A stretch of DNA of 64,000 nucleotides. Origin: a bacterium (GTDB taxonomy: Bacteria > Patescibacteriota > Minisyncoccia > UBA6257 > JAGOQP01). The translations under genes and the position numbers were made by a program. How positions within the stretch are numbered: position 1 is the first letter of the stretch; every line of letters starts with the position of its first letter. Positions 28,345 through 60,600 of the stretch are shown here, piece after piece. The notes beneath the pieces were generated by a model. It was not told the origin of the DNA. It saw nothing but the letters and a program-made list of their open reading frames with translations, and ran no database searches. The stretch is from the NCBI GenBank assembly GCA_021812345.1, contig JAKANP010000002.1, positions 6,394-70,393 on the forward strand. Direction: 5' to 3'.

Positions 28345-28680
28345 ATTCCGGATTTACATGCCCTCTGAAGCTCTGACAAAGTATGGGCATGCCCTCCGTA
28401 GCTTTAGCGAGGGATGGAGCCTGCCCTCCGTAACTTTAGCGAAGGATGGAGCCTGCCCTCCGTAGCTTTAGCGAAGGATGGGAAAGGAGGTGGCGAGTTT
28501 GCAAGACGGAGGATTTGTAAAAAATGTATTTTGTATTTAGTATTTAGTATTTTGCTTGTCCTGAGCGGAGTTGAAGGACGGAGGATTTATAAAATCCCTC
28601 CCGCCCTACGGCGTACTCCCTTTAAAAAAGGGAGAATTATTTTTCGCCTGCCTGCCGGTAGGCAGGTATTTCGTAGCCAA
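28345..28680. repeat. Modular GC-rich intergenic repeat locus A (tandem 31-32-bp units plus shared hairpin modules)
   Basis: A 3.5x tandem array of GCCCTCCGTAGCTTTAGCGAAGGATGGAGCCT (28360-28482) is followed by modules shared with loci B and C: AAAGGAGGTGGCGAG, GGAGGATTTGTAAAATCCCTCC, TCCCTTTAAAAAAGGGAGA, GCCTGCCTGCCGGTAGGCAGG, and the 38-mer GTAAAAAATGTATTTTGTATTTAGTATTTAGTATTTTG. Confidence 0.8.
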
Positions 28681-32730: not shown

Positions 32731-33645
32731 ATGAATGAAGTTGAAAAATATATAAAAGAATATCTTGATTATCTGGAGGTGGAAAAGAATCGCTCGCCTA
32801 AGACGATCGAGAATTATCGACGCTATTTAAATTTTTTTGTTAAAATCTCCGGCGCTAAAAATCTCAAAGATGTCAATTTTGAAAATATTCGCAGATTTCG
32901 CCTCGATTTGGCAAGAAGAGCCGGAGAAGAGAGCGAATTTCTTAAAAAAAATACACAAAGTTATTACGTGATAGCCATAAGAAATTTTTTGAAATATCTG
33001 ATAAAAAATTCCATAAAAACTTCCGTTTCCCCGGAACAAATAGAACTTCCTAAAGTTTCTCAAAGACAGATTGAAATTATGGAATATTCCGACCTGGAAA
33101 GATTTCTAAACAGTCCGTCGGGAGATTCTTTAAGGAGTTTAAGAGATAAAGCGATTTTAGAAACCCTCTTTTCCACCGGGCTTCGTATTTCGGAACTTTG
33201 TTCTTTATCAAGGTATCAGGATTTTGACAGAGGCGAGGTAACCGTTCGAGGCAAGGGAGGAAAATTGAGAGTGGTGTTTTTTTCCGATGATGCAAAAAAG
33301 GCGATAAAAAAATATCTTGATAAAAGAAGCGATGCGGAAGAGGCGCTTTTTGTGAGTTTGAATAAATCAAAAAATCCAAAAGTTATAGGGAAAATAATTC
33401 CTCGCGCCATTCAACGGCTGGTAAGGTATTATGCCAAAAAATCAGGCACATTGGACAAAGTCACGCCTCATCAATTAAGACACCAATTTGCCACCGATCT
33501 TTTGATGAATGGAGCCGATATTCGTTCGGTTCAAGCTCTGCTTGGGCACGCGAACATTGCCACCACTCAAATATACACGCACGTTACCAATAAAGAACTC
33601 AAAGAAATTCATAAAACTTTCCACGGGAAAAGAAGAAGCGATTGA
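32731..33645 (+). CDS. Tyrosine site-specific recombinase (XerC/XerD-like)
   Basis: N-terminal SAM-like core-binding domain (YLDYLEVEKNRSPKTIENYRRYLNFF). The C-terminal catalytic block HQLRHQFATDLLMNGADIRSVQALLGHANIATTQIYTHV has the R..HxxR..Y signature. Confidence 0.8.
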   Translation: MNEVEKYIKEYLDYLEVEKNRSPKTIENYRRYLNFFVKISGAKNLKDVNFENIRRFRLDLARRAGEESEFLKKNTQSYYVIAIRNFLKYLIKNSIKTSVSPEQIELPKVSQRQIEIMEYSDLERFLNSPSGDSLRSLRDKAILETLFSTGLRISELCSLSRYQDFDRGEVTVRGKGGKLRVVFFSDDAKKAIKKYLDKRSDAEEALFVSLNKSKNPKVIGKIIPRAIQRLVRYYAKKSGTLDKVTPHQLRHQFATDLLMNGADIRSVQALLGHANIATTQIYTHVTNKELKEIHKTFHGKRRSD

Positions 33646-33684: not shown

Positions 33685-33769
33685 GCCGAGGTGGCGAAAT
33701 TGGCTATACGCACTAGCTTTAGGAGCTAGCGCTCGAAAGAGCATGCGGGTTCGACTCCCGCCCTCGGCA
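33685..33769 (+). tRNA. tRNA-Leu (anticodon TAG), type II with long variable arm
   Basis: Acceptor GCCGAGG/CCTCGGC pairs perfectly, a D-arm is present, the anticodon stem-loop CTAGC-TTTAGGA-GCTAG gives anticodon TAG, a long variable arm precedes the T-arm GGGTTCGACTCCCGC, and the discriminator is A. No encoded CCA. Confidence 0.85.
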
Positions 33770-33996: not shown

Positions 33997-34362
33997 TTAC
34001 TGAGTAAGTCCGGAAGACAATGAGTTTTGAACCAAAGTAACCACTCCATAAGAAAGCAGAGCAACTACTATACCGACGATGGCATAGATTAGTTCTTGTT
34101 TGGCTTTTTTGGTTGTTTCACTATCTCCCTTGCTGGTGATAAAGTGAAAAGCTGCCAAAAGAATAAAAAGAACCGCGACAATAAAGATTATGTAATAGAA
34201 CCATTTAACAACAGTAACTAATATCCCAACCCAACCAGATATAGTTCCCGGACCTGTTACTGGACCCAATACCGGCGGAGTTGTAGGTTGAGCAAAAACA
34301 GATACTCCCACAACAAAGAGCAAAATTACCAATCCAATTGACGCAAATATTTTTTTAACCAT
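33997..34362 (-). CDS. T4SS pilin-like protein (VirB2/TrbC-type), paralog 6 of 6
   Basis: From the internal Met (ATG at 34360-34362) there is a signal peptide MVKKIFASIGLVILLFVVGVSVFA, then a hydrophobic helix, AAFHFITSKGDSETTKKAKQELIYAIVGIVVAL, and a second helix. It shares this pattern with the five upstream paralogs. Confidence 0.6.
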   Translation of the reverse strand: MVKKIFASIGLVILLFVVGVSVFAQPTTPPVLGPVTGPGTISGWVGILVTVVKWFYYIIFIVAVLFILLAAFHFITSKGDSETTKKAKQELIYAIVGIVVALLSYGVVTLVQNSLSSGLTQ

Positions 34363-34433
34363 GATTTTTTTATCGTTTACGACCTTTACTTTTGATATAT
34401 TTAATAATAACACAAGTCCAAAATAACTTCAAA

Positions 34434-34829
34434 TTAATTAGCTCCCCTGCTTTGCAAAAACTGGGTTATTAATAACGAGACACCGGTAGAAATAAGAGCA
34501 ACAACTATGGCAATAACAGCATATTTAAGTTGAGCTTTAGCTTCCGCGGCTTTTTTTTCATTGGCTCCGCCTTGAAGAAAGTTATATGCCGCCAAAAGAA
34601 TAAACAAAACAGCAACTACAAAAAATATAATGTAAATCCATCTAACTATGCTGAGTAAGATATACCAAATCTGTGTCACGCCGGTCACAGGAGAAGCAAT
34701 TTGGCTATTTCCAAAAGGATTAACATATCCTTCGTTCACTACGGCAAAAACTTCAAAAATTCCGGTGGTTAAAAATATGGTTATAAATAAAAAAGGTAAA
34801 ATTTTTAATAATGTTTTTTGTTTAAACAT
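34434..34829 (-). CDS. T4SS pilin-like protein (VirB2/TrbC-type), paralog 5
   Basis: Signal peptide, helix, AAYNFLQGGANEKKAAEAKAQLKYAVIAIVVALIS, then a second helix. Confidence 0.65.
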   Translation of the reverse strand: MFKQKTLLKILPFLFITIFLTTGIFEVFAVVNEGYVNPFGNSQIASPVTGVTQIWYILLSIVRWIYIIFFVVAVLFILLAAYNFLQGGANEKKAAEAKAQLKYAVIAIVVALISTGVSLLITQFLQSRGAN

Positions 34830-34845
34830 AAATTTAAATTATTTT

Positions 34846-35214
34846 TTAATAAACTCCTCCACTGCCGATGAATTGGGAAATAATAGCCGATAAACCGGTA
34901 GCAATTAAGGCGACAACTATGGAAATTCCGGCATATTTAAGTTGGTTTTTGGCAACTTCTATTTTCTTTTCATTGGTTCCTCCTTGGATAAAATTATAAG
35001 CCGCCATCAAAATGAATATTACCGCCACCACAAAAAACGCGCGATAAATCCAAATAACAATACTTTTAACGATGGTAAATATATCGTCTGCGCTATTTAC
35101 CGGGGACGCCGTATCGCCGGTATTAAATGGAGCTATATTAACGCTTGCTCCGTAAGCAAACATCGGAGCCAAGGAATAGATAGCCGCCAAAATTAAAAAA
35201 AACTTCTTTCTCAT
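34846..35214 (-). CDS. T4SS pilin-like protein (VirB2/TrbC-type), paralog 4
   Basis: Signal peptide, helix, AAYNFIQGGTNEKKIEVAKNQLKYAGISIVVALIA, then a second helix. Confidence 0.65.
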   Translation of the reverse strand: MRKKFFLILAAIYSLAPMFAYGASVNIAPFNTGDTASPVNSADDIFTIVKSIVIWIYRAFFVVAVIFILMAAYNFIQGGTNEKKIEVAKNQLKYAGISIVVALIATGLSAIISQFIGSGGVY

Positions 35215-35228
35215 ATTTTTAATATTAA

Positions 35229-35546
35229 TTATTTATTTCCCAAAAACGTATTTATTATCGTGGCAACCCCTGAAGCGGTCAAGGCAATAACCAGAGCGAT
35301 AACTGCATATTTAAGCTGAGCTTTGGCGGTTTCTATTTTTTTAGGATTATCTCCTCCTTGAAGATAGTTAAACGCCGCTAAAAGAATGAATCCGACGACG
35401 ACAATATAGAAAGCTTCATACATATAAGTAACGGCTTTTTGCATAAGAGCGATAATATCATCGGCTGTTTGAATCGCGGCAAACGCCACCAATGGAAACC
35501 CGGAAATAATTGCCGCCGCTATAATTGCTTTTGTTTTGTTTTTCAT
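35229..35546 (-). CDS. T4SS pilin-like protein (VirB2/TrbC-type), paralog 3
   Basis: Start at the internal MKNKTKAIIAAAI, which removes the overlap with the upstream gene. Signal peptide, helix, AAFNYLQGGDNPKKIETAKAQLKYAVIALVIAL. Confidence 0.6.
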   Translation of the reverse strand: MKNKTKAIIAAAIISGFPLVAFAAIQTADDIIALMQKAVTYMYEAFYIVVVGFILLAAFNYLQGGDNPKKIETAKAQLKYAVIALVIALTASGVATIINTFLGNK

Positions 35547-35562
35547 ATTTAAATATTTTAAT

Positions 35563-35907
35563 TTATGCCCCAATAAAATTTTTGACTACCGCCGCTATGC
35601 CCTTTGCCGCAAGAACTACCGCCATTCCAATGATTGTGTAAGTAATTGTTTTTTTGCCTTGGGCAAATTTATTTTCATTTCCGGCGGCGCCAAGCATTTG
35701 AAAAGCTCCGATCAACAGCATTATAACAAAAACAGGCGCGGCAAGCTCAACAATAAAAGTGGCGATTTTATCAATCAAATCCGGTATGGTGTTAACTCCG
35801 GATTGAGCTAACGGATTTTGTAAAGCAACTCCTCCGGTATCAGCGGCGCTCACAACCGTTGGCACCCCTAAAATAACGGCAATCGATGAATAAAGAAATT
35901 TTTTCAT
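35563..35907 (-). CDS. T4SS pilin-like protein (VirB2/TrbC-type), divergent paralog 2
   Basis: Signal peptide MKKFLYSSIAVILGVPTVVSA, a helix, GAFQMLGAAGNENKFAQGKKTITYTIIGMAVVLAA, and a second helix. Same architecture as the others with a more diverged motif. Confidence 0.55.
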   Translation of the reverse strand: MKKFLYSSIAVILGVPTVVSAADTGGVALQNPLAQSGVNTIPDLIDKIATFIVELAAPVFVIMLLIGAFQMLGAAGNENKFAQGKKTITYTIIGMAVVLAAKGIAAVVKNFIGA

Positions 35908-35931
35908 ATTATATTTATTATAAACATTATA

Positions 35932-36312
35932 CTATTGTGTCGGCAAATTTAAAAACTTCAAAATAGTGTTAACTAAAAGCCAAGCGCCGAAAGTCAAAAC
36001 TATGCCGATTGCCGCCGCAGTTATTTTTTTCTTTCCGCTTTTAAATTTTCCCTCATCACCGGCGGAAATTGCCATTTCAATTCCTCCCCAGATAATAACA
36101 ATTACCGCCACCGGCGTGACAACATCAGTTAAAGCAAAGGTAACTAAACCTTGAACCATTTTTACAAAATCGGAATAATTGCAAGGATTTTGTCCGTTTC
36201 CTCCGCAATTTACCAAAGCGGCAAAAGATGATGCGGCGTTTATAAAAAACGCCATCAAAAAGAATAAAATTCCATAACCGTATTTCTCGTATTTTCCTGT
36301 TTTATTCAACAT
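35932..36312 (-). CDS. T4SS pilin-like protein (VirB2/TrbC-type), divergent paralog 1 (first in array)
   Basis: Signal/TM region, a Cys-containing segment NCGGNGQNPCNY, a helix, IWGGIEMAISAGDEGKFKSGKKKITAAAIGIVLTFGAWLLV. Same two-helix pilin layout. Confidence 0.5.
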   Translation of the reverse strand: MLNKTGKYEKYGYGILFFLMAFFINAASSFAALVNCGGNGQNPCNYSDFVKMVQGLVTFALTDVVTPVAVIVIIWGGIEMAISAGDEGKFKSGKKKITAAAIGIVLTFGAWLLVNTILKFLNLPTQ

Positions 36313-36383: not shown

Positions 36384-37709
36384 TTATTGCCCCAAATTTG
36401 TCGACGGTTGATACAAATTATTTATTGCCGCTTGAGCCGCTTGAACCGATGCCTGAACATTCAATTTGCCGGATAAAATATCGCTTACCATTCCGATAAA
36501 AATAGAATCGATAGACGATGGATTTATTTGAAACCAATCCTTGGCAGTTAAGAATTCTTTTAAGAATACGCCGTTGTCCCCGCCAAGTCCCTGTTGAATC
36601 AGCGAAAGCAAAGCCGGAAGTTTATTCGTCGCCGAAAGATAAGAAGAACTGATCGACGGCGTCATTGTAAGATATCTTATAAAACTCCAAGCAACATAAG
36701 GATTTTGAGTTTGTTTGGAAACTGCCAATCCCCAATAATTTGGCCAATTGGATATTTGCGAAGCATTGGCATTTGATAACTGAGGCAAAGGAGCAACGCC
36801 AAGATTGATATAAGCATTTCTGTTTTTTATATCTTTGATTGCGCTGTAATAATCAAAAATCATCGCGGTCTGACCGGCGGCAAAAGAAGAAACAGAATTA
36901 TCAAAACTTTCATTCCAGGTGTAATAAGGACTTACCGGATCGGAAAATTGAGTATAAAATTGGACCGCTTTATTAAATGGATCGTCTAAAATAACTCCGT
37001 CGTTTGATGGGTTATTAATAGTAGACCCGGACTGCATCGCCAAGACACTCAAAATATCCGGAACATTATTTATATTATGAGCCGAACCCAAAGCGGCGGC
37101 AGAAAGAGATATCTTTTTATTCTGGTCTATTTCCGTTATCTTGGAGACATCGGCAATAAAATCGTCCCAAGTTGCCGGCGGGAAAACAATTCCTTTGGAA
37201 TTAAAAACGTCTTTGTTATAAATAAGAGCCAGCGCGTCCATCGAAAGAGGCGAGGCAAAAATATTTCCGGACAAAACAAAATCTTTTGAAACAACTGCGG
37301 GAAAAGATTGGCTAAAAACTTGAGGTGTGAGCAACAAAGACGGAGCGGGATAAAGTTTGTTCCAATTGCTGTAAACCCAGAGATTATTAACCATAAAAAT
37401 ATCGGGGCCCTGATTTGCGGCAAGCGCGTCGATTAACTTTTGCTGGTAAGCAACCGGGTCGGTAAATTTTGTGTAATTTATTTTTACGTTTTTATAAACG
37501 CCTTGATACGATTTTATGATATCGTTGTAAACGGAATAATCATCGCCCACTCCCCACATTTGTAAAGTAACGCTCCCGGTCGGGAAGTTTGGATCAGAAA
37601 CAGTAGTCTTTTTTATTCCGGGAATTATTCCCATCAAGCCCAAAATAAAAACAATGGCGACTATTGCGATAATCCCAATAACCATCAATTGAGTTTTGTT
37701 GAAGTTCAT
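36384..37709 (-). CDS. ABC transporter extracellular solute-binding protein (family 1, sugar-type), membrane anchored
   Basis: N-terminal TM/signal anchor, then a roughly 400-aa periplasmic-binding-protein-like domain (KINYTKFTDPVAYQQKLIDALAANQGPDIFMVNN...) typical of SBP_bac_1. No permease or ATPase gene is adjacent in the window. Confidence 0.55.
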   Translation of the reverse strand: MNFNKTQLMVIGIIAIVAIVFILGLMGIIPGIKKTTVSDPNFPTGSVTLQMWGVGDDYSVYNDIIKSYQGVYKNVKINYTKFTDPVAYQQKLIDALAANQGPDIFMVNNLWVYSNWNKLYPAPSLLLTPQVFSQSFPAVVSKDFVLSGNIFASPLSMDALALIYNKDVFNSKGIVFPPATWDDFIADVSKITEIDQNKKISLSAAALGSAHNINNVPDILSVLAMQSGSTINNPSNDGVILDDPFNKAVQFYTQFSDPVSPYYTWNESFDNSVSSFAAGQTAMIFDYYSAIKDIKNRNAYINLGVAPLPQLSNANASQISNWPNYWGLAVSKQTQNPYVAWSFIRYLTMTPSISSSYLSATNKLPALLSLIQQGLGGDNGVFLKEFLTAKDWFQINPSSIDSIFIGMVSDILSGKLNVQASVQAAQAAINNLYQPSTNLGQ

Positions 37710-37765
37710 TACTCTAATTATCTGATATTAAAAAAATAAATGCAATGTTTTTAAAAAAATAAACG

Positions 37766-38060
37766 AGTCGTCATTCTGAGCGAAGTCGAAGGAGCTTGTC
37801 CTGAGCGAAGTCGAAGGAGCTTGTCCTGAGCGAAGTCGAAGGAGCTTGTCCTGAGCGAAGTCGAAGGACGGAGGATTTGTAAAATCCCTCCCGCCTTACG
37901 GCGTACTCCCTTTATGAAAGGGAGAATTATTTGTTTTGTTCCTCCTTTTCTAAAGGAGGTGGCGAGCTAGCGAGACAGAGGATTTGTATTCGTAAATCCC
38001 TCGCCCTGACGGGCACTCCCTTTAACAAAGGGAGAATGAACACAACAAAAGAGCCCCGAA
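37766..38060. repeat. Modular GC-rich intergenic repeat locus B (4x tandem 25-bp units plus two hairpin-module copies)
   Basis: CTTGTCCTGAGCGAAGTCGAAGGAG occurs 4x in tandem (37768-37868). It is followed by two variant copies of the GGAGGATTTGTAAAATCCCTCC...TCCCTTTATGAAAGGGAGA module and the AAAGGAGGTGGCGAG module, all shared with loci A and C. Confidence 0.8.
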
Positions 38061-38086
38061 GGGCTCTTTTGCTGTCCGATTATACG
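38060..38086. terminator. Intrinsic terminator downstream of the 1085-aa surface protein gene
   Basis: AAAAGAGCCCcgaaGGGCTCTTTTG is a perfect GC-rich hairpin with A- and T-tracts, about 35 bp after the stop codon at 38119 on the minus strand. Confidence 0.6.
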
Positions 38087-38118
38087 ACATCGGAAAACGA
38101 AATCAACAATCTTACGAC

Positions 38119-41100
38119 TTAGTTAGCTAAGTTTGTAAGAACAGGTCCGGCAACCGGAAGAGTAACGTTGGTCGGCAAGAATGTAAGATCTGATGTCGAT
38201 CCGTCGCTCCAAGTTATTCCCTGAACCGAAATCTGATAAGTGCCATTGTTGTTTGAGGCAGTTAAAGTATTTGCGGCAGAGGTAACTTTAAATTGCAAGA
38301 CTCTATTTGTTGAACCGGAAGGAATGTCCCAACCACTGGTAAATCCAGAAGTTGTAGCTGTTGTAGTAGCTGTTGTACCAGTAAGCGTAATCGTGAAGAT
38401 AGCGGAATTAGGATTGGTTGAATCATACAACGACAAAGCAACAGTTGTTGATGATTGGACCACTGAACCGCTCTGGGAAAGATTAAGTTTAGTGATATAA
38501 ACATCGTTTCCGGTATTCATTGCTCCGGCAGTAAATGACGAAACAATATTTCCAACTCCGGCTCCGATAGAAGTTATCGGGGTTACTGTTCCTCCAGAAA
38601 ATCCTGAGAGCAAAGCTCGGTACAAAGTTATGTTATTTCCTTGAGCTGATACATTGGTTGAAGTCGTGTTAGGACCAGTTGTCAGGTTATAAACATAGCT
38701 TGATGCCTGGAAGGAATGGGTTGAATTTTCAGCGTTATTGAAGCTGTTGTAATTAACCGGGCTACCAACCAAGCTCAAAGTCGCATATTGATTCTGAGCA
38801 ATAGTGATAGGAGCGTTAAAGACAAATGTCGCTGTTCCGCTGGCAGTTAACGACGGCTGAGTATTCAACGTAGTTCCGTTGTAAACCAAGCTAAAGTTGT
38901 TAAATGATTGCGGATATTGAGTGGCAGTGCTTGTAGTAGATGAAGCCGCATCAAGAATCGTCAACTGACTGACAGTGACAGGACCGCTTGATGAACCATT
39001 CAATCTGTAGATAGCCAATGTGTTGTTGGAAGTTCCAAGTCCCATAACAGTTGCCGCTGGGCTGGTGTTGTCAAGAGTAATGCTAGATAAAGCATTTCCT
39101 TGAGAGACATAAACTCCCTGTCCTGAAGCAGTTACGCTGGAAACGGAGTTTCCTCCGGCAGTGGCGTTAACTCCTGCAAGATTTGCCAAGTCAACTGGAG
39201 TTGAAGTTGAAGCCGAGTTTGAAAGAGCGGCAAAAACATCAACAGTTACCGATTGAGTAGCCGGGATAATAACTTGAGAAGAACCACTGAAAGTGTAATT
39301 TCCTCCCGAAGTTATATTTCCTTGAGCAACTCCAAAGGCAGAGCCATTAACATTGACATACAAACTTGAAAGCCATCCTGACGGAACACCTGAAGGAACT
39401 CCGATAGTTACTCCGCTAACAATAGCAGAGTTAACTTGTCCGGCCTGCAAGATGAATGACGCAACTTTAGAAGTTGAACCAGCCATCAAAACCGGCGATC
39501 CAAAAGATCCGTTCTGATAAGCGGTCAAATTAGTCGTATTTGCCAAAACTTGCAAAGTCGGTGAGTCAAAATGATTGCTCAAGCTTCCGACAGATGTGTA
39601 GTTTGATTGAGATTGACCAACCATAGCAACATCAGTTCCGACGTTTGTTCCAGAAGAAACAGTGCCTTGAATGGTTAATGTTTGAGTGGTGTTAGCCGGA
39701 ATTATGTAGTTCAAATTTTGGAATTTAACTACATTAGCCGGTCCACTCGACATGCTCGATTGGGTTGTTCCCAATTGAGTGCCATTAATCAAAACTTGGA
39801 CGTTTGTAGTGCTAGCTGATCCGTTCAGATAGAAATCTAATTCTTGCAATCTGATGTTGTCTCCTGAAGCTAAGACTGTATAACTACCCAAAACTGAATT
39901 TGAGTTGTTTTGAACGATATACAAAGCGGTGGATGAAGCATTGTTAACTACCAATCCTCCCGGCTGAACTGTTACAGAATACATATTCTCTGGGAATGTT
40001 TGTGATCCATAAGCAGTGGAGCCAATTCCGACATTGTACATATTGTCAATCGCTTGGACATCAGATGACTGCTGAACGGTAAATTGGAAATTATATCCAA
40101 CACCGCCAGTAACATCAGCGTAAAGCGACAAAGTAGCCGCCTGACCCGAAGTTAACATCAAAGGAGCGTTTGAAAGGTCAAACAAAGCAATGTTGCCGTT
40201 CAAAGTGGAAAGAGTGGCACCAACCTGAGTTGAGCCATTCATTAATTTGATGTTAGCGATGTCTTGTGTCGGCTCGCTTCCAGTCATAGTAAAGCGCAAG
40301 CTGGTTACTTTAACTGGGTTATTGCCTGCAGTTAATGTAAACTGTCCGACGAGATTATTCGTCTGGCCGGCGTTAACACTGGTGTTGGCAGTAACATTAT
40401 TAAAGGTTAAGGTTGCCAAATTGGTTACATTAACCAATGACAACTGATTTCCGGAAACTGGGAAGTTTCCTCCAACAGTTACATTGCTTGCAGTTACAAC
40501 ATTGGTAGCCGCCGGCAATGAGAAGGTAAGAATATGGCTTGCATTTGAACCATTGTTGTAGATATCAGCTTTAACTGTTATTTCGGTTGTTTGACCGGCG
40601 CTAACAGTAAACAATCCCGTTCCGCTTGAAAATACTATATTTCCATTAGAGATGCTCATGTTGGTAGCAACACGGTTTGCTCCTTGGTAAAGATAGACAT
40701 TTTGTAAGTCGGCATCTTGGGATAATCCAGACCTAACAATAGTCAAAGAATTAACAGTGACTGCTTGCGATCCGGCTGTGAAATTCAAAGCCATAACCGG
40801 GACGGCAACAGCGCCAATAGCGACATTACCTGAAGCCGGGTTGTCCGAAGCCAATGCGACAGAAAGTCCGCTGGTTGTCGGGACAACTGTTCCAGTTCCA
40901 GTTCCTGTTCCGGTTCCTGTTCCAGTTCCGGTTCCAGTTCCTGTTCCGGTTGTTTGCGATGCTATGAATGCTCTGGTTTTAGGTCCAAAGTATCCAGCGG
41001 CGGGCGAAATTGAATTCGCTGCCTGATATTTTGCCAACGCGGCTTTGGTCATCGCGCCAAAGTATCCGGTCGGGGCGGAGATTTTAAGAAATCCGCCATC

Positions 41101-41376
41101 AATCAAAATTTGTTGGAGAGCAGAAACATCAGCTCCTTTGCTGCCGAGGGTGAGGTCCTTGGTGAAGCTGTAGGAAGATGAAGCGCCTCCTTGTGAAGCA
41201 GCCATTTGCGATTTCAAAGCTGTTATTTGAGCGAGCAAGGTCGCGATTTGCGATTGCAAGTCAGTGGTTGTTTGGGCATTAGAGAAGCTAACAGCTCCAA
41301 AAACCATAACAACTGATAACACAACGACTGCTAATTTTTTTGCAGTACTCATTTTAGATTTTACAGAAAAATACAT
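38119..41376 (-). CDS. Large secreted/surface protein with N-terminal peptidoglycan-binding (PG_binding_1-like) domain, (Gly-Thr)12 linker and long S/T/N-rich beta-rich repeats
   Basis: Signal peptide, a coiled segment, then TLGSKGADVSALQQILIDGGFL...GYFGAMTKAALAKYQAANSISPAAGYFGPKTRAFI, which matches the PG-binding domain pattern. This is followed by TGTGTGTGTGTGTGTGTGTGT and about 900 aa of low-complexity T/S/N/G/V-rich sequence. Confidence 0.55.
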   Translation of the reverse strand: MYFSVKSKMSTAKKLAVVVLSVVMVFGAVSFSNAQTTTDLQSQIATLLAQITALKSQMAASQGGASSSYSFTKDLTLGSKGADVSALQQILIDGGFLKISAPTGYFGAMTKAALAKYQAANSISPAAGYFGPKTRAFIASQTTGTGTGTGTGTGTGTGTGTGTVVPTTSGLSVALASDNPASGNVAIGAVAVPVMALNFTAGSQAVTVNSLTIVRSGLSQDADLQNVYLYQGANRVATNMSISNGNIVFSSGTGLFTVSAGQTTEITVKADIYNNGSNASHILTFSLPAATNVVTASNVTVGGNFPVSGNQLSLVNVTNLATLTFNNVTANTSVNAGQTNNLVGQFTLTAGNNPVKVTSLRFTMTGSEPTQDIANIKLMNGSTQVGATLSTLNGNIALFDLSNAPLMLTSGQAATLSLYADVTGGVGYNFQFTVQQSSDVQAIDNMYNVGIGSTAYGSQTFPENMYSVTVQPGGLVVNNASSTALYIVQNNSNSVLGSYTVLASGDNIRLQELDFYLNGSASTTNVQVLINGTQLGTTQSSMSSGPANVVKFQNLNYIIPANTTQTLTIQGTVSSGTNVGTDVAMVGQSQSNYTSVGSLSNHFDSPTLQVLANTTNLTAYQNGSFGSPVLMAGSTSKVASFILQAGQVNSAIVSGVTIGVPSGVPSGWLSSLYVNVNGSAFGVAQGNITSGGNYTFSGSSQVIIPATQSVTVDVFAALSNSASTSTPVDLANLAGVNATAGGNSVSSVTASGQGVYVSQGNALSSITLDNTSPAATVMGLGTSNNTLAIYRLNGSSSGPVTVSQLTILDAASSTTSTATQYPQSFNNFSLVYNGTTLNTQPSLTASGTATFVFNAPITIAQNQYATLSLVGSPVNYNSFNNAENSTHSFQASSYVYNLTTGPNTTSTNVSAQGNNITLYRALLSGFSGGTVTPITSIGAGVGNIVSSFTAGAMNTGNDVYITKLNLSQSGSVVQSSTTVALSLYDSTNPNSAIFTITLTGTTATTTATTSGFTSGWDIPSGSTNRVLQFKVTSAANTLTASNNNGTYQISVQGITWSDGSTSDLTFLPTNVTLPVAGPVLTNLAN

Positions 41377-60040: not shown

Positions 60041-60223
60041 CTTAAAATAAAAAATTAATTATAATATTTTTCTTTAATCGGCAGTTAAAAAATCAAATGC
60101 CTTTTTTAAACTTAAAACAGCATTTGATTTATAAAAACCAATTTAAGAATTTTTAAGGTTGATAAAAATTTAACAAAAAATTTTTTTCAAGTCAATTTAC
60201 CAAAATAATAAGAAGATTTGTAA

Positions 60224-60592
60224 AAAATGTATTTTGTATTTAGTATTTAGTATTTTGCGCGCCCTCCGTAGCTTTAGCGAAGAAGGAATTTGCCTGCCTG
60301 CCGGTAGGCGGGGAATCCAGTCCACATTGTCATCCTGAATTTATTTCAGGATCCACGTTTCCTGGATTCCAGCCTACGCTGGAATGACGAGAGGGTTTGT
60401 CATCCTGAATTTAGCAGGATCCATGCTTCCTGGATTCCAGCATACGCTGGAATGACAAATGTACCTCAGCTTTTTCAGTTTTTTGGTTAAAAAAATTCCT
60501 CCTTTTCTAAAGGAGGTGGCCTGAGATTTGTCGAAGGAGCTTGTCCTGAGCGAAGTCGAAGGAGCTTGTCCTGAGCGAAGTCGAAGGGTGGA
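60224..60592. repeat. Modular GC-rich intergenic repeat locus C (shared 38-mer, 2x tandem 60-bp hairpin unit, 3x tandem 25-bp unit)
   Basis: Shares the 38-mer GTAAAAAATGTATTTTGTATTTAGTATTTAGTATTTTG, GCCCTCCGTAGCTTTAGCGAAG and GCCTGCCTGCCGGTAGGCGG with locus A. It has a 2x tandem unit TGTCATCCTGAATTTATTTCAGGATCCACGTTTCCTGGATTCCAGCCTACGCTGGAATGAC (60328-60457) with nested inverted repeats. It then has AAAGGAGGTGGC and CTTGTCCTGAGCGAAGTCGAAGGAG x3, shared with locus B. Confidence 0.8.
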
Positions 60593-60600
60593 GAAACAAA

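Follow-up and report, generated by a model that had tools for sequence, protein, structure and literature searches.

Locus B, a probable mosaic of two families of hairpin-forming repeats in a Patescibacteria-type genome

In the 64,000-nt stretch of contig JAKANP010000002.1 analyzed here (the window), a 409-bp spacer between two minus-strand genes (37710-38118) carries a cluster of short repeats, referred to as locus B, in which an array of 25-nt units (25-mers) is followed by two copies of a module of three consecutive hairpins (H1, H2 and H3). Comparisons within the window and with other genomes and metagenomes indicate that locus B is probably a patchwork of non-coding, hairpin-forming modules drawn from two unrelated families and akin to REP, BIME, NIME and BOX elements. 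It can be described as combining a head-to-tail array of CGTC-REP-like hairpins with an inverted doublet that resembles a REPIN or MITE and with one additional half-unit. The conservation of structure at this site reveals membership in two hairpin-repeat families, not a functional RNA specific to the locus. Since the modules also occur at unrelated loci and in other phyla, lie here between a terminator and a promoter, and are absent in relatives, they are not tied to this gene.

Architecture and borders of locus B

Tandem Repeats Finder delineated at 37776-37868 an array with a period of 25 nt, 3.7 copies and 100% matches, within which the 18-nt core CTGAGCGAAGTCGAAGGA occurs in four exact copies at 25-nt spacing. 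Throughout the window this core is matched seven times, always on the + strand, against 0.02 matches expected from shuffles; the matches outside locus B belong to the sister loci described below, namely locus C (two copies, 60546-60588, one of them with one mismatch) and locus A (one copy, 28561-28578, with two mismatches). The original prediction, made from this DNA alone, of four head-to-tail 25-mers thus holds for the core but not for the full unit, which is reproduced without a mismatch in just two places (37795-37819 and 37820-37844). Unit 4 (37845-37869) has a terminal C in place of G, and the head of unit 1 (37770-37794) reads GTCATTC versus CTTGTCC, a difference of four mismatches (CGTCATTCT in place of CTTGTCCT). 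The elements of the array and of the modules that follow it are, from left to right:

37769-37794, + strand: 25-mer unit 1, founder-like; CGTC tag (37769-37772), half-stem ATTCT, top GAGCGAAGTCGA (37778-37789), half-stem AGGAG
37795-37869, + strand: 25-mer units 2-4, uniform head-to-tail array, each CT-TGTC-CT-GAGCGAAGTCGA-AGGAG; units 2 and 3 identical
37870-37891, + strand: module copy 1, H1, GGAGGATTT / AAATCC(C)TCC with a bulged C
37892-37903, + strand: module copy 1, H2, CGCC-TTAC-GGCG
37906-37924, + strand: module copy 1, H3, CTCCCTTT-ATG-AAAGGGAG
37941-37959, + strand: hairpin H0, left half of the inverted doublet (37939-37977), CCTCCTTT-TCT-AAAGGAGG
37961-37976, + strand: linker after H0, GGCGAGCTAGCGAGAC, in the place of H2 in the mirrored half
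37978-38002, + strand: module copy 2, H1', GAGGATTT-GTATTCGT-AAATCCCTC
38003-38014, + strand: module copy 2, H2', GCCC-TGAC-GGGC
38016-38034, + strand: module copy 2, H3', CTCCCTTT-AAC-AAAGGGAG

In our reading of the 25-mer, its top GAGCGAAGTCGA would be made up of two G.A mismatches together with a G-C and a C-G pair, closed by a GAA loop. Two other identities were considered for the unit and rejected. A hammerhead-like reading of CUGA...GAA leaves a core devoid of G8/A9 and finds no match in Rfam. As to a CRISPR array, the units abut without spacers, and the sole Rfam CRISPR-DR match (E=0.54) is far below threshold.

The two diverged module copies that had been predicted to follow the array are indeed present (37870-37925 and 37978-38036), with a further copy at 28580-28637. 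Relative to shuffles the module folds strongly on both strands; copy 1 has folding z-scores of -6.65 as DNA and -4.33 as RNA and scores 58.3 bits with the covariance model of the family described below, while copy 2 scores 44.7 bits. The compensatory changes said to preserve two of its hairpins were not found in these: between copies, hairpin 1 shows a 4-nt loop insertion and the loss of its outermost pair, and hairpin 3 differs in the loop only (ATG, AAC or AAA). The sole true double change in a stem falls in the middle 4-bp hairpin, previously taken for plain sequence, in which CGCC/GGCG became GCCC/GGGC with two pairs altered on both sides.

Module copy 2 is preceded by H0 and its linker, with which it forms a 98-nt inverted doublet (37939-38036; z -4.9 as DNA and -3.3 as RNA), a layout also encountered in other genomes. 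H0 and the linker recur at 28483-28519, at 60496-520 and at locus D. Read on the minus strand (37941-37963), H0 gives CCACCTCCTTTAGAAAAGGAGGAA, a copy of the 16S rRNA 3' end (anti-Shine-Dalgarno) paired with a perfect Shine-Dalgarno-like run (CACCTCCTTT...AAAGGAGG); this look may only be a consequence of hairpins built from purine and pyrimidine runs.

The mosaic is bordered by the following features:

36384-37709, - strand: solute-binding-protein gene (downstream)
37717-37745, - strand: putative promoter of the solute-binding-protein gene, read from the sequence; left-hand border of the mosaic
38042-38075, - strand: strong intrinsic terminator of the gene for the 1085-aa protein, with a T run after its 15-bp stem; borders the mosaic on the right
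38119-41376, - strand: gene for a 1085-aa PG_binding protein (upstream)

With a terminator on one side and a promoter on the other, the mosaic (37766-38036) exactly fills the gap between the two. The putative promoter consists of a -35 box TTGCAT (37740-37745), a 17-nt spacer and a -10 box GATAAT (37717-37722) placed 7 nt from the ATG at 37709, which suggests a near-leaderless mRNA. A simple consensus promoter scan did not list TTGCAT-17-GATAAT upstream of the solute-binding-protein gene. An equivalent arrangement (TTGCAA/TTGCTT-17 nt-GATAAT-6/7 nt-ATG), with a terminator directly before it, is found in three orthologues (L234-L236; identity 63-74%). In these three relatives, neither the orthologous spacers (182-261 bp) nor the surrounding 7-9 kb contain locus B modules, indicating that the mosaic is a lineage-specific addition. 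The gene upstream of the orthologous spacer encodes GyrA in all relatives compared and the PG_binding protein here, such that locus B coincides with a synteny break; GyrA was not found in 84 kb of the present genome.

The locus B spacer is highly structured as a whole (folding z -5 to -6.8). Rfam 15, searched at gathering thresholds, yielded two tRNAs in the window and nothing else, and the best match of a permissive search over 37700-38125 reached E=0.073, with 24 bits versus a gathering score of 55.

Two hairpin-repeat families in other genomes

The 18-nt core of the 25-mer was found in 39 IMG/VR stretches, on contigs whose GC content ranges from 24 to 72%. Over all DNA fetched, 131-144 distinct instances of the family share a constant GAGCG-N-AG-(N)-CGA of 11-12 nt, the flanks of which pair as ATCCT/AGGAT, GTCCT/AGGAC, ATGCT/AGCAT, GCACT/AGTGC, ACATT/AGTGT or GTCTC/GAGAC. 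The five stem positions beside the conserved top covary (0/1000 shuffles for each), in tests of a kind that kinship between copies inflates. A strict CGTC, TGTC or CCTC tag stands 5' of the stem in 46/144 instances, compared to ~1% by chance; at locus B, unit 1 has CGTC and units 2-4 have TGTC. The stem starts with AT in 46/144 members and in unit 1, not in units 2-4, and the tails of the family are heterogeneous. Its members occur as singletons, as inverted pairs (L034, L037), as tandem arrays, and, in several contigs, at the apex of a longer hairpin particular to its locus (L009, L014, L015, L026 and L033).

A metagenome scan for two 25-mer cores 4-12 nt apart retrieved uniform arrays from 19 contigs (GC 37-65%), with periods of 23, 24, 25, 27 or 30 nt and from two to at least seven copies. 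The linker is constant inside one array and varies across arrays, edge units are diverged, and one contig (L233) shares the window's linker GCTTGTC. Linkers specific to each array and diverged edges imply that arrays arose many times independently and were homogenized locally. Such a pattern would bear the mark of slippage or unequal recombination that started from one inserted hairpin.

The family resembles the CGTC-tagged REPs, which include Neisseria dRS3 and Rickettsia RPE-4/6 and are characterized by their tag, an 8-9 bp stem begun with AT, a 4-5 nt loop, a CCA tail and the absence of a dedicated transposase (PMC3733652). The 25-mers and the CGTC REPs alike are short intergenic hairpins rich in GC, with CGTC, TGTC or CCTC left unpaired as a tag at one end and a stem that varies from copy to copy, both are spread over several phyla, and no dedicated transposase is known for either. 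In contrast to the CGTC REPs, the 25-mer has 4-5 Watson-Crick pairs around a 12-nt conserved top; to obtain a stem of eight pairs closed by a CGAAG loop, one would have to allow two G.A mismatches as well as a bulged T. Furthermore, the 25-mer is devoid of the CCA tail and forms head-to-tail arrays, whereas CGTC REPs are mostly head-to-head dimers, head-to-tail arrangements being negligible (PMC3733652). The amplification of one short module to a variable count beside hairpin-forming end modules is reminiscent of pneumococcal BOX, a composite repeat inside which the 45-nt boxB is tandemly amplified (PMC3049150). BOX elements carry terminal inverted repeats and target-site duplications and vary in length between strains, a variation not seen at locus B; the two are unrelated in sequence.

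The three-hairpin module was sought in GTDB genomes with a pattern allowing a 4-nt loop in hairpin 3; the window copies have 3-nt loops (ACTCCCTTTNNNAAAGGGAGA), so that their closest relatives were missed. The scan returned 101 stretches versus ~17 expected by chance according to our own arithmetic, and ~80 of the 101 have AAATCCCTCC and a small hairpin immediately upstream, neither of which was part of the search pattern. Hosts include Moraniibacteriota, Gracilibacteria, Saccharibacteria, Peribacteria, Flavobacteriales, Sphingobacteriales (a complete genome), Elusimicrobiaceae (at least 12 copies in one metagenome-assembled genome), Atribacterota and Ignavibacteriales, a list that could be inflated by the mis-binning of metagenome-assembled genomes. 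The module family was not found in IMG/VR; 70 matches to hairpin 1 in that database (GAGGATTT..AAATCCCTC), mostly in coding-like contexts and without hairpins 2 and 3, were discarded as chance.

Throughout the family, the arms AAATCCCTCC and ACTCCCTTT-loop-AAAGGGAG bracket a small inner hairpin that is very variable yet well paired: it takes 62-69 distinct sequences of 4-60 nt, with at least four nested pairs in 73% compared to 20% of shuffles. A covariance model built from 19 copies and searched over 649 kb gave more than 100 full-length matches. In the resulting alignment, which was fitted to the model and somewhat favors structure, pairing holds in 97.3% of cells, and both sides change in 10 of 13 pairs. 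Double-change cells number 140 versus 31.6 in shuffles (0/500 as high), and slid partners are at most 71% paired.

Module copies are often adjacent inverted pairs, in two arrangements, which yield palindromes of 92-145 nt with the ends TCTCCCTTT...AAAGGGAGA; window positions 37939-38036 are one of them. Some copies are missing the middle hairpin, and in others an additional hairpin is nested at its tip or inserted beside it (L121, L146, L171 and L187). The small dispersed repeats of cyanobacteria, according to what Elhai et al. reportedly described in 2008, are likewise very small hairpin repeats nested in each other and at the tips of other hairpins; their sequences and host phyla are different. 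The H0...H3 doublet is also comparable to the REPINs associated with RAYT, in which two inverted half-units make one long hairpin and singlets coexist with doublets (PMC3116915, PMC2817692). REPINs carry a GTAG tag and go with a cognate RAYT, an IS200/IS605-like Y1 transposase encoded in the genome, whereas the doublet has no GTAG tag and an inner hairpin that is very variable even within one genome. As regards MITE features, the inverted TCTCCCTTT...AAAGGGAGA termini are present, the flanks are AT-rich with no clear duplication callable, and no parent insertion sequence was seen. A full-text literature search for the repeat sequences found no paper describing them.

Sister loci and turnover of the mosaics

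Self-comparison of the window revealed that loci A, B and C are assembled from at least eight short module types, in combinations specific to each locus and always in the same orientation. The set includes the 25-mer, the three-hairpin module, H0 with its linker, a 32-mer, a 68-mer, an AT-rich 44-mer (M7) and a GCCTGCCTGCCGGTAGGC piece. A further mosaic, locus D, adjoins a tRNA gene to the left of the window. The sister loci are:

28356-28665, + strand: locus A; 32-mer x3-4, right half of H0 with linker, M7, one diverged 25-mer, one hairpin module, CGCCTGCCTGCCGGTAGGCAGG
60215-60593, + strand: locus C; M7, one 32-mer, GCCTGCCTGCCGGTAGGC, 68-mer x2, H0, 25-mer array of ~3 units
L247 13060-13330 (ENA ERZ27237563 k141_77642), ~2 kb left of the window start, same orientation as loci A-C: locus D; H0, linker, M7, 32-mer x4, GGTAGGC piece

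In line with the original prediction, tandem copy number varies by locus, with ~4 copies of the 25-mer at locus B, ~3 at locus C and one at locus A; over the mosaics, the 32-mer counts are 1, 3-4 and 4, and that of the 68-mer is 2. The 32-mer GCCTGCCCTCCGTAGCTTTAGCGAAGGATGGA (28387-28482, 60257-60288 and L247) reads as a CCTC-tagged hairpin, CGTAGC-TTTA-GCGAAG, whose stem has G.A and A.G mismatches flanking a T-A pair, in the style of the 25-mer. At locus A, an 18-nt direct duplication, GACGGAGGATTTRTAAAA, surrounds M7 and the lone 25-mer (28505-28594); it may have arisen by nested insertion in the loop of hairpin 1 or by recombination at the common GATTTGTAAAA.

Each 68-mer of locus C is a head-to-head pair of canonical CGTC REPs as defined in the literature, with the tag, an 8-bp stem starting AT, a 4-5 nt loop and the CCA tail (PMC3733652): TGTC-ATCCTGAA-TTTAT-TTCAGGAT-CCA is paired with an inverted CCTGG-ATTCCAGC-CTAC-GCTGGAAT-GACG, a layout that a relative, GCA_027353055.1 (L248), shares with other stems. 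This relative documents the turnover of locus C. Its DNA is 86% identical to the window over the pyrophosphatase gene and 162 bp upstream, and homology ends at window position 60199, 16 nt short of the mosaic. Beyond this point, GCA_027353055.1 has a mosaic of its own, consisting of an M7-like AT-rich piece and one head-to-head REP pair with other stems; no 25-mer array, H0 or 32-mer was found in it, and the upstream gene is different. Upstream of the pyrophosphatase gene, L248 carries a pair resembling a diversity-generating retroelement (bAvd and a reverse transcriptase, 464-1798), where the window has a zinc-ribbon gene.

The differing combination of at least eight module types at loci A-D and the difference of locus C in its relative are what is expected of mosaics of the BIME and NIME type. 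Like the BIMEs of E. coli, which are clusters of REPs, and the NIMEs, or Neisseria intergenic mosaic elements (PMC1797815), locus B interleaves short intergenic repeat families, with GC-rich hairpins alternating with AT-richer pieces; arrays in those systems also differ in number and length across strains or species and are often found beside variable genes. Mosaic clustering of CGTC-type REPs is documented in Neisseria. On the other hand, BIMEs alternate regularly in orientation, which locus B does not, and the module families differ. IHF and gyrase binding and a link with a phage integrase have been described for BIMEs and NIMEs, whereas the likeness of locus B to them lies in the arrangement of its repeats.

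The window itself, with a GC content of ~37%, sits within contig DAIERY010000001.1 (110.5 kb) of assembly GCA_027346585.1. Its genes include those for polynucleotide phosphorylase (PNPase), an H+-pyrophosphatase, a series of type IV secretion system (T4SS) pilin paralogues and the solute-binding protein, the top homologues of which carry Patescibacteria/Parcubacteria annotation. dnaA and dnaN lie 6-7 kb past the right end of the window, from which it follows that its mostly minus-strand genes are co-directional with replication. Downstream of the solute-binding protein, six consecutive genes encode small T4SS-pilin (TrbC/VirB2-like) paralogues (33997-36312), and relatives keep this arrangement, along with a Xer-like integrase (32731-33645) and a tRNA (33685-33769). 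In one relative (L235, 101-3739), GyrA contains an intein (Intein_splicing domain within DNA_topoisoIV). Two further repeat regions of the window deserve mention. At 50104-50234, in the spacer after a 1937-aa gene, there are 2.5 tandem copies of a 46-nt unit, GACCTCACCTTAGGGTTATTTTAATAAGATAAAAATAACC(TCCAAA), each with a hairpin of its own (GGTTATTTT...AAAATAACC); this array is unrelated to the modules of loci A-D. At 63400-63860, an AT-rich divergent spacer of ~650 bp, 6-8 kb from dnaA/dnaN, contains the palindrome (A)TGTTTCACGTGAAACA(T) three times, plus a single half-site, and CCTTGCCGGAC(T) five times; these candidate repeats could be binding sites for a regulator or a replication protein.

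Origin, alternatives and significance

The original prediction had taken conserved pairing with sequence drift for the hallmark of a selected structure. Pairing is indeed kept while the sequence drifts, over the copies of many genomes (0/500 and 0/1000 shuffles), but it is not proof of a functional RNA. Hairpin-dependent repeat families (REP, REPIN and MITE) all show conserved pairing, and template switching in quasi-palindromes can produce double changes by mutation alone. We propose instead that both families spread as DNA, through a hairpin-dependent step catalyzed by an enzyme acting in trans. The mosaic would occupy a stretch in which insertions harm little, from the terminator of one gene to the promoter of the next, and locus B is probably of little consequence for its flanking genes. 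A single inserted 25-mer, now the diverged unit 1, may have been amplified locally head-to-tail by slipped-strand mispairing or unequal recombination, while the three-hairpin module would represent one half of an inverted doublet resembling a REPIN or MITE, a doublet that is complete at 37939-38036. New pieces landing in or beside existing hairpins would cause mosaics to accumulate and turn over quickly.

The head-to-tail arrays, the conserved top of putative G.A type and a variable inner hairpin in arms conserved across phyla fall outside the published descriptions consulted. We venture, as a speculation that is unlikely to hold, that the GAGCGAAGTCGA-topped hairpin and the AAATCCCTCC/variable hairpin/ACTCCCTTT-AAAGGGAG element are substrates of an undescribed, cross-phyla DNA insertion system directed at hairpin tips. 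What leads to this idea is that no RAYT was found and that new palindromes lie at the apex of, or beside, existing hairpins (L009, L015, L121, L146, L171 and L187). Moreover, the inner hairpin is variable yet nearly always paired, even within one genome, which would point to a process by which palindromes are generated or copied. Candidates are synthesis by snap-back or template switching, or an enzyme that nicks hairpins; ordinary transposition followed by drift would not give this pattern.

Several results weigh against the interpretation of locus B as a patchwork of dispersed repeats. Folded with ViennaRNA, a single 25-mer unit showed no extra stability relative to shuffles (z -0.15 as DNA and -0.67 as RNA); the hairpin of the single unit thus rests on covariation and on the reading of the G.A pairs. 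No pair of filled and empty sites with exact boundaries was found for locus B in the genomes compared. A tblastn search with one E. coli RayT query, a weak test, gave no RAYT or transposase homologue at E<1, either in the window or across the 1.9 Mb of loci retrieved, which represent flanking sequence only. Length polymorphism was not observed either, locus B being the same in two assemblies (NCBI and ENA) and locus A in five, in a comparison limited by the collapse of minority variants in assemblies. The predicted likeness to minisatellites accordingly applies between loci and species, as seen at locus C versus its 86%-identical relative, and not between samples; copy number varying within a population, the mark of a hypervariable minisatellite or contingency locus, was not seen in the assemblies compared. 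Finally, two observations would also fit a selected, strand-specific role: four Moraniibacteriota species have a module at an orthologous site, and single modules have their H3 side toward the 3' end of a gene in 37 versus 15 cases, as judged from crude ORF calls. By the same crude calls, modules between same-direction gene pairs are in antisense orientation in 21 versus 9 cases, and locus B follows the majority.

These last observations bear on an alternative that we regard as unlikely, in which the modules, transcribed by read-through from upstream, would be functional RNAs that stabilize 3' ends or block exonucleases, serve as additional terminators, or insulate transcription units from each other. 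Such a role has been proposed for many REPs. Retention of the module in place across four species, its far better folding than shuffles on both strands and the 37-to-15 preference for the purine-rich version on the mRNA-sense strand, to which locus B conforms, are all compatible with such a role. So are the reverse-complement H0 of locus C, followed by a T run 80-100 nt past a stop codon, and the terminator-like score of H3 with AATTATTTGT on the + strand. REPs are, in addition, reported to lie mostly downstream of genes (PMC3733652). However, a canonical strong terminator precedes the mosaic at locus B and little transcription should arrive there, for which reason an RNA role at this locus is rated possible but secondary. 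The hairpins of most copies have no T run after them, counts of G.T versus A.C mismatches gave no strand signal for the folding strand (47 vs 40; 22 vs 12), and the orientation bias is inseparable from replication-strand bias, genes running with replication.

It is highly improbable that the 25-mer array is a contingency (phase-variation) locus, in which changes in copy number would shift the spacing or strength of an upstream promoter element and thereby switch the solute-binding-protein/T4SS-pilin cluster. The perfect tandem array does begin ~25 nt upstream of the -35 box, copy number varies across loci and genomes, and BOX/boxB elements can modulate neighboring genes; yet copy number was constant in the assemblies (two for locus B, five for locus A), arrays of the same kind stand in many unrelated contexts, and there is no sign of an activator site beyond the array. 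A regulatory element dedicated to this cluster, be it a cis-acting leader, a riboswitch or a small RNA, as might be suspected from a highly structured spacer directly upstream of it and from a weak promoter-like match (37954-37926, - strand) that would place part of the mosaic in a 5' untranslated region, is largely refuted and has next to no chance of being correct, in that the conserved promoter lies 7 nt from the ATG with the mosaic upstream of its -35 box, orthologues at 60-74% identity retain this promoter without any module, the same modules are present at unrelated loci and in other phyla, and the best Rfam match has an E of only 0.07.

Recognizing locus B as a probable mosaic of dispersed hairpin repeats has practical as well as biological implications. 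Modules of this type disrupt short-read assemblies, two Logan contigs terminating inside the repeats, and yield spurious small ORFs; they also mark points at which synteny changes between relatives. To our knowledge, work on REP, BIME and NIME mosaics has been confined almost entirely to Proteobacteria and a few pathogens. Here, a mosaic is found in a streamlined genome of the Patescibacteria type, in which non-coding DNA is scarce. The two families that make it up also reach Bacteroidota, Elusimicrobiota, Atribacterota and viral contigs, and given this breadth one may ask how elements so small travel from phylum to phylum when no transposase can be recognized.

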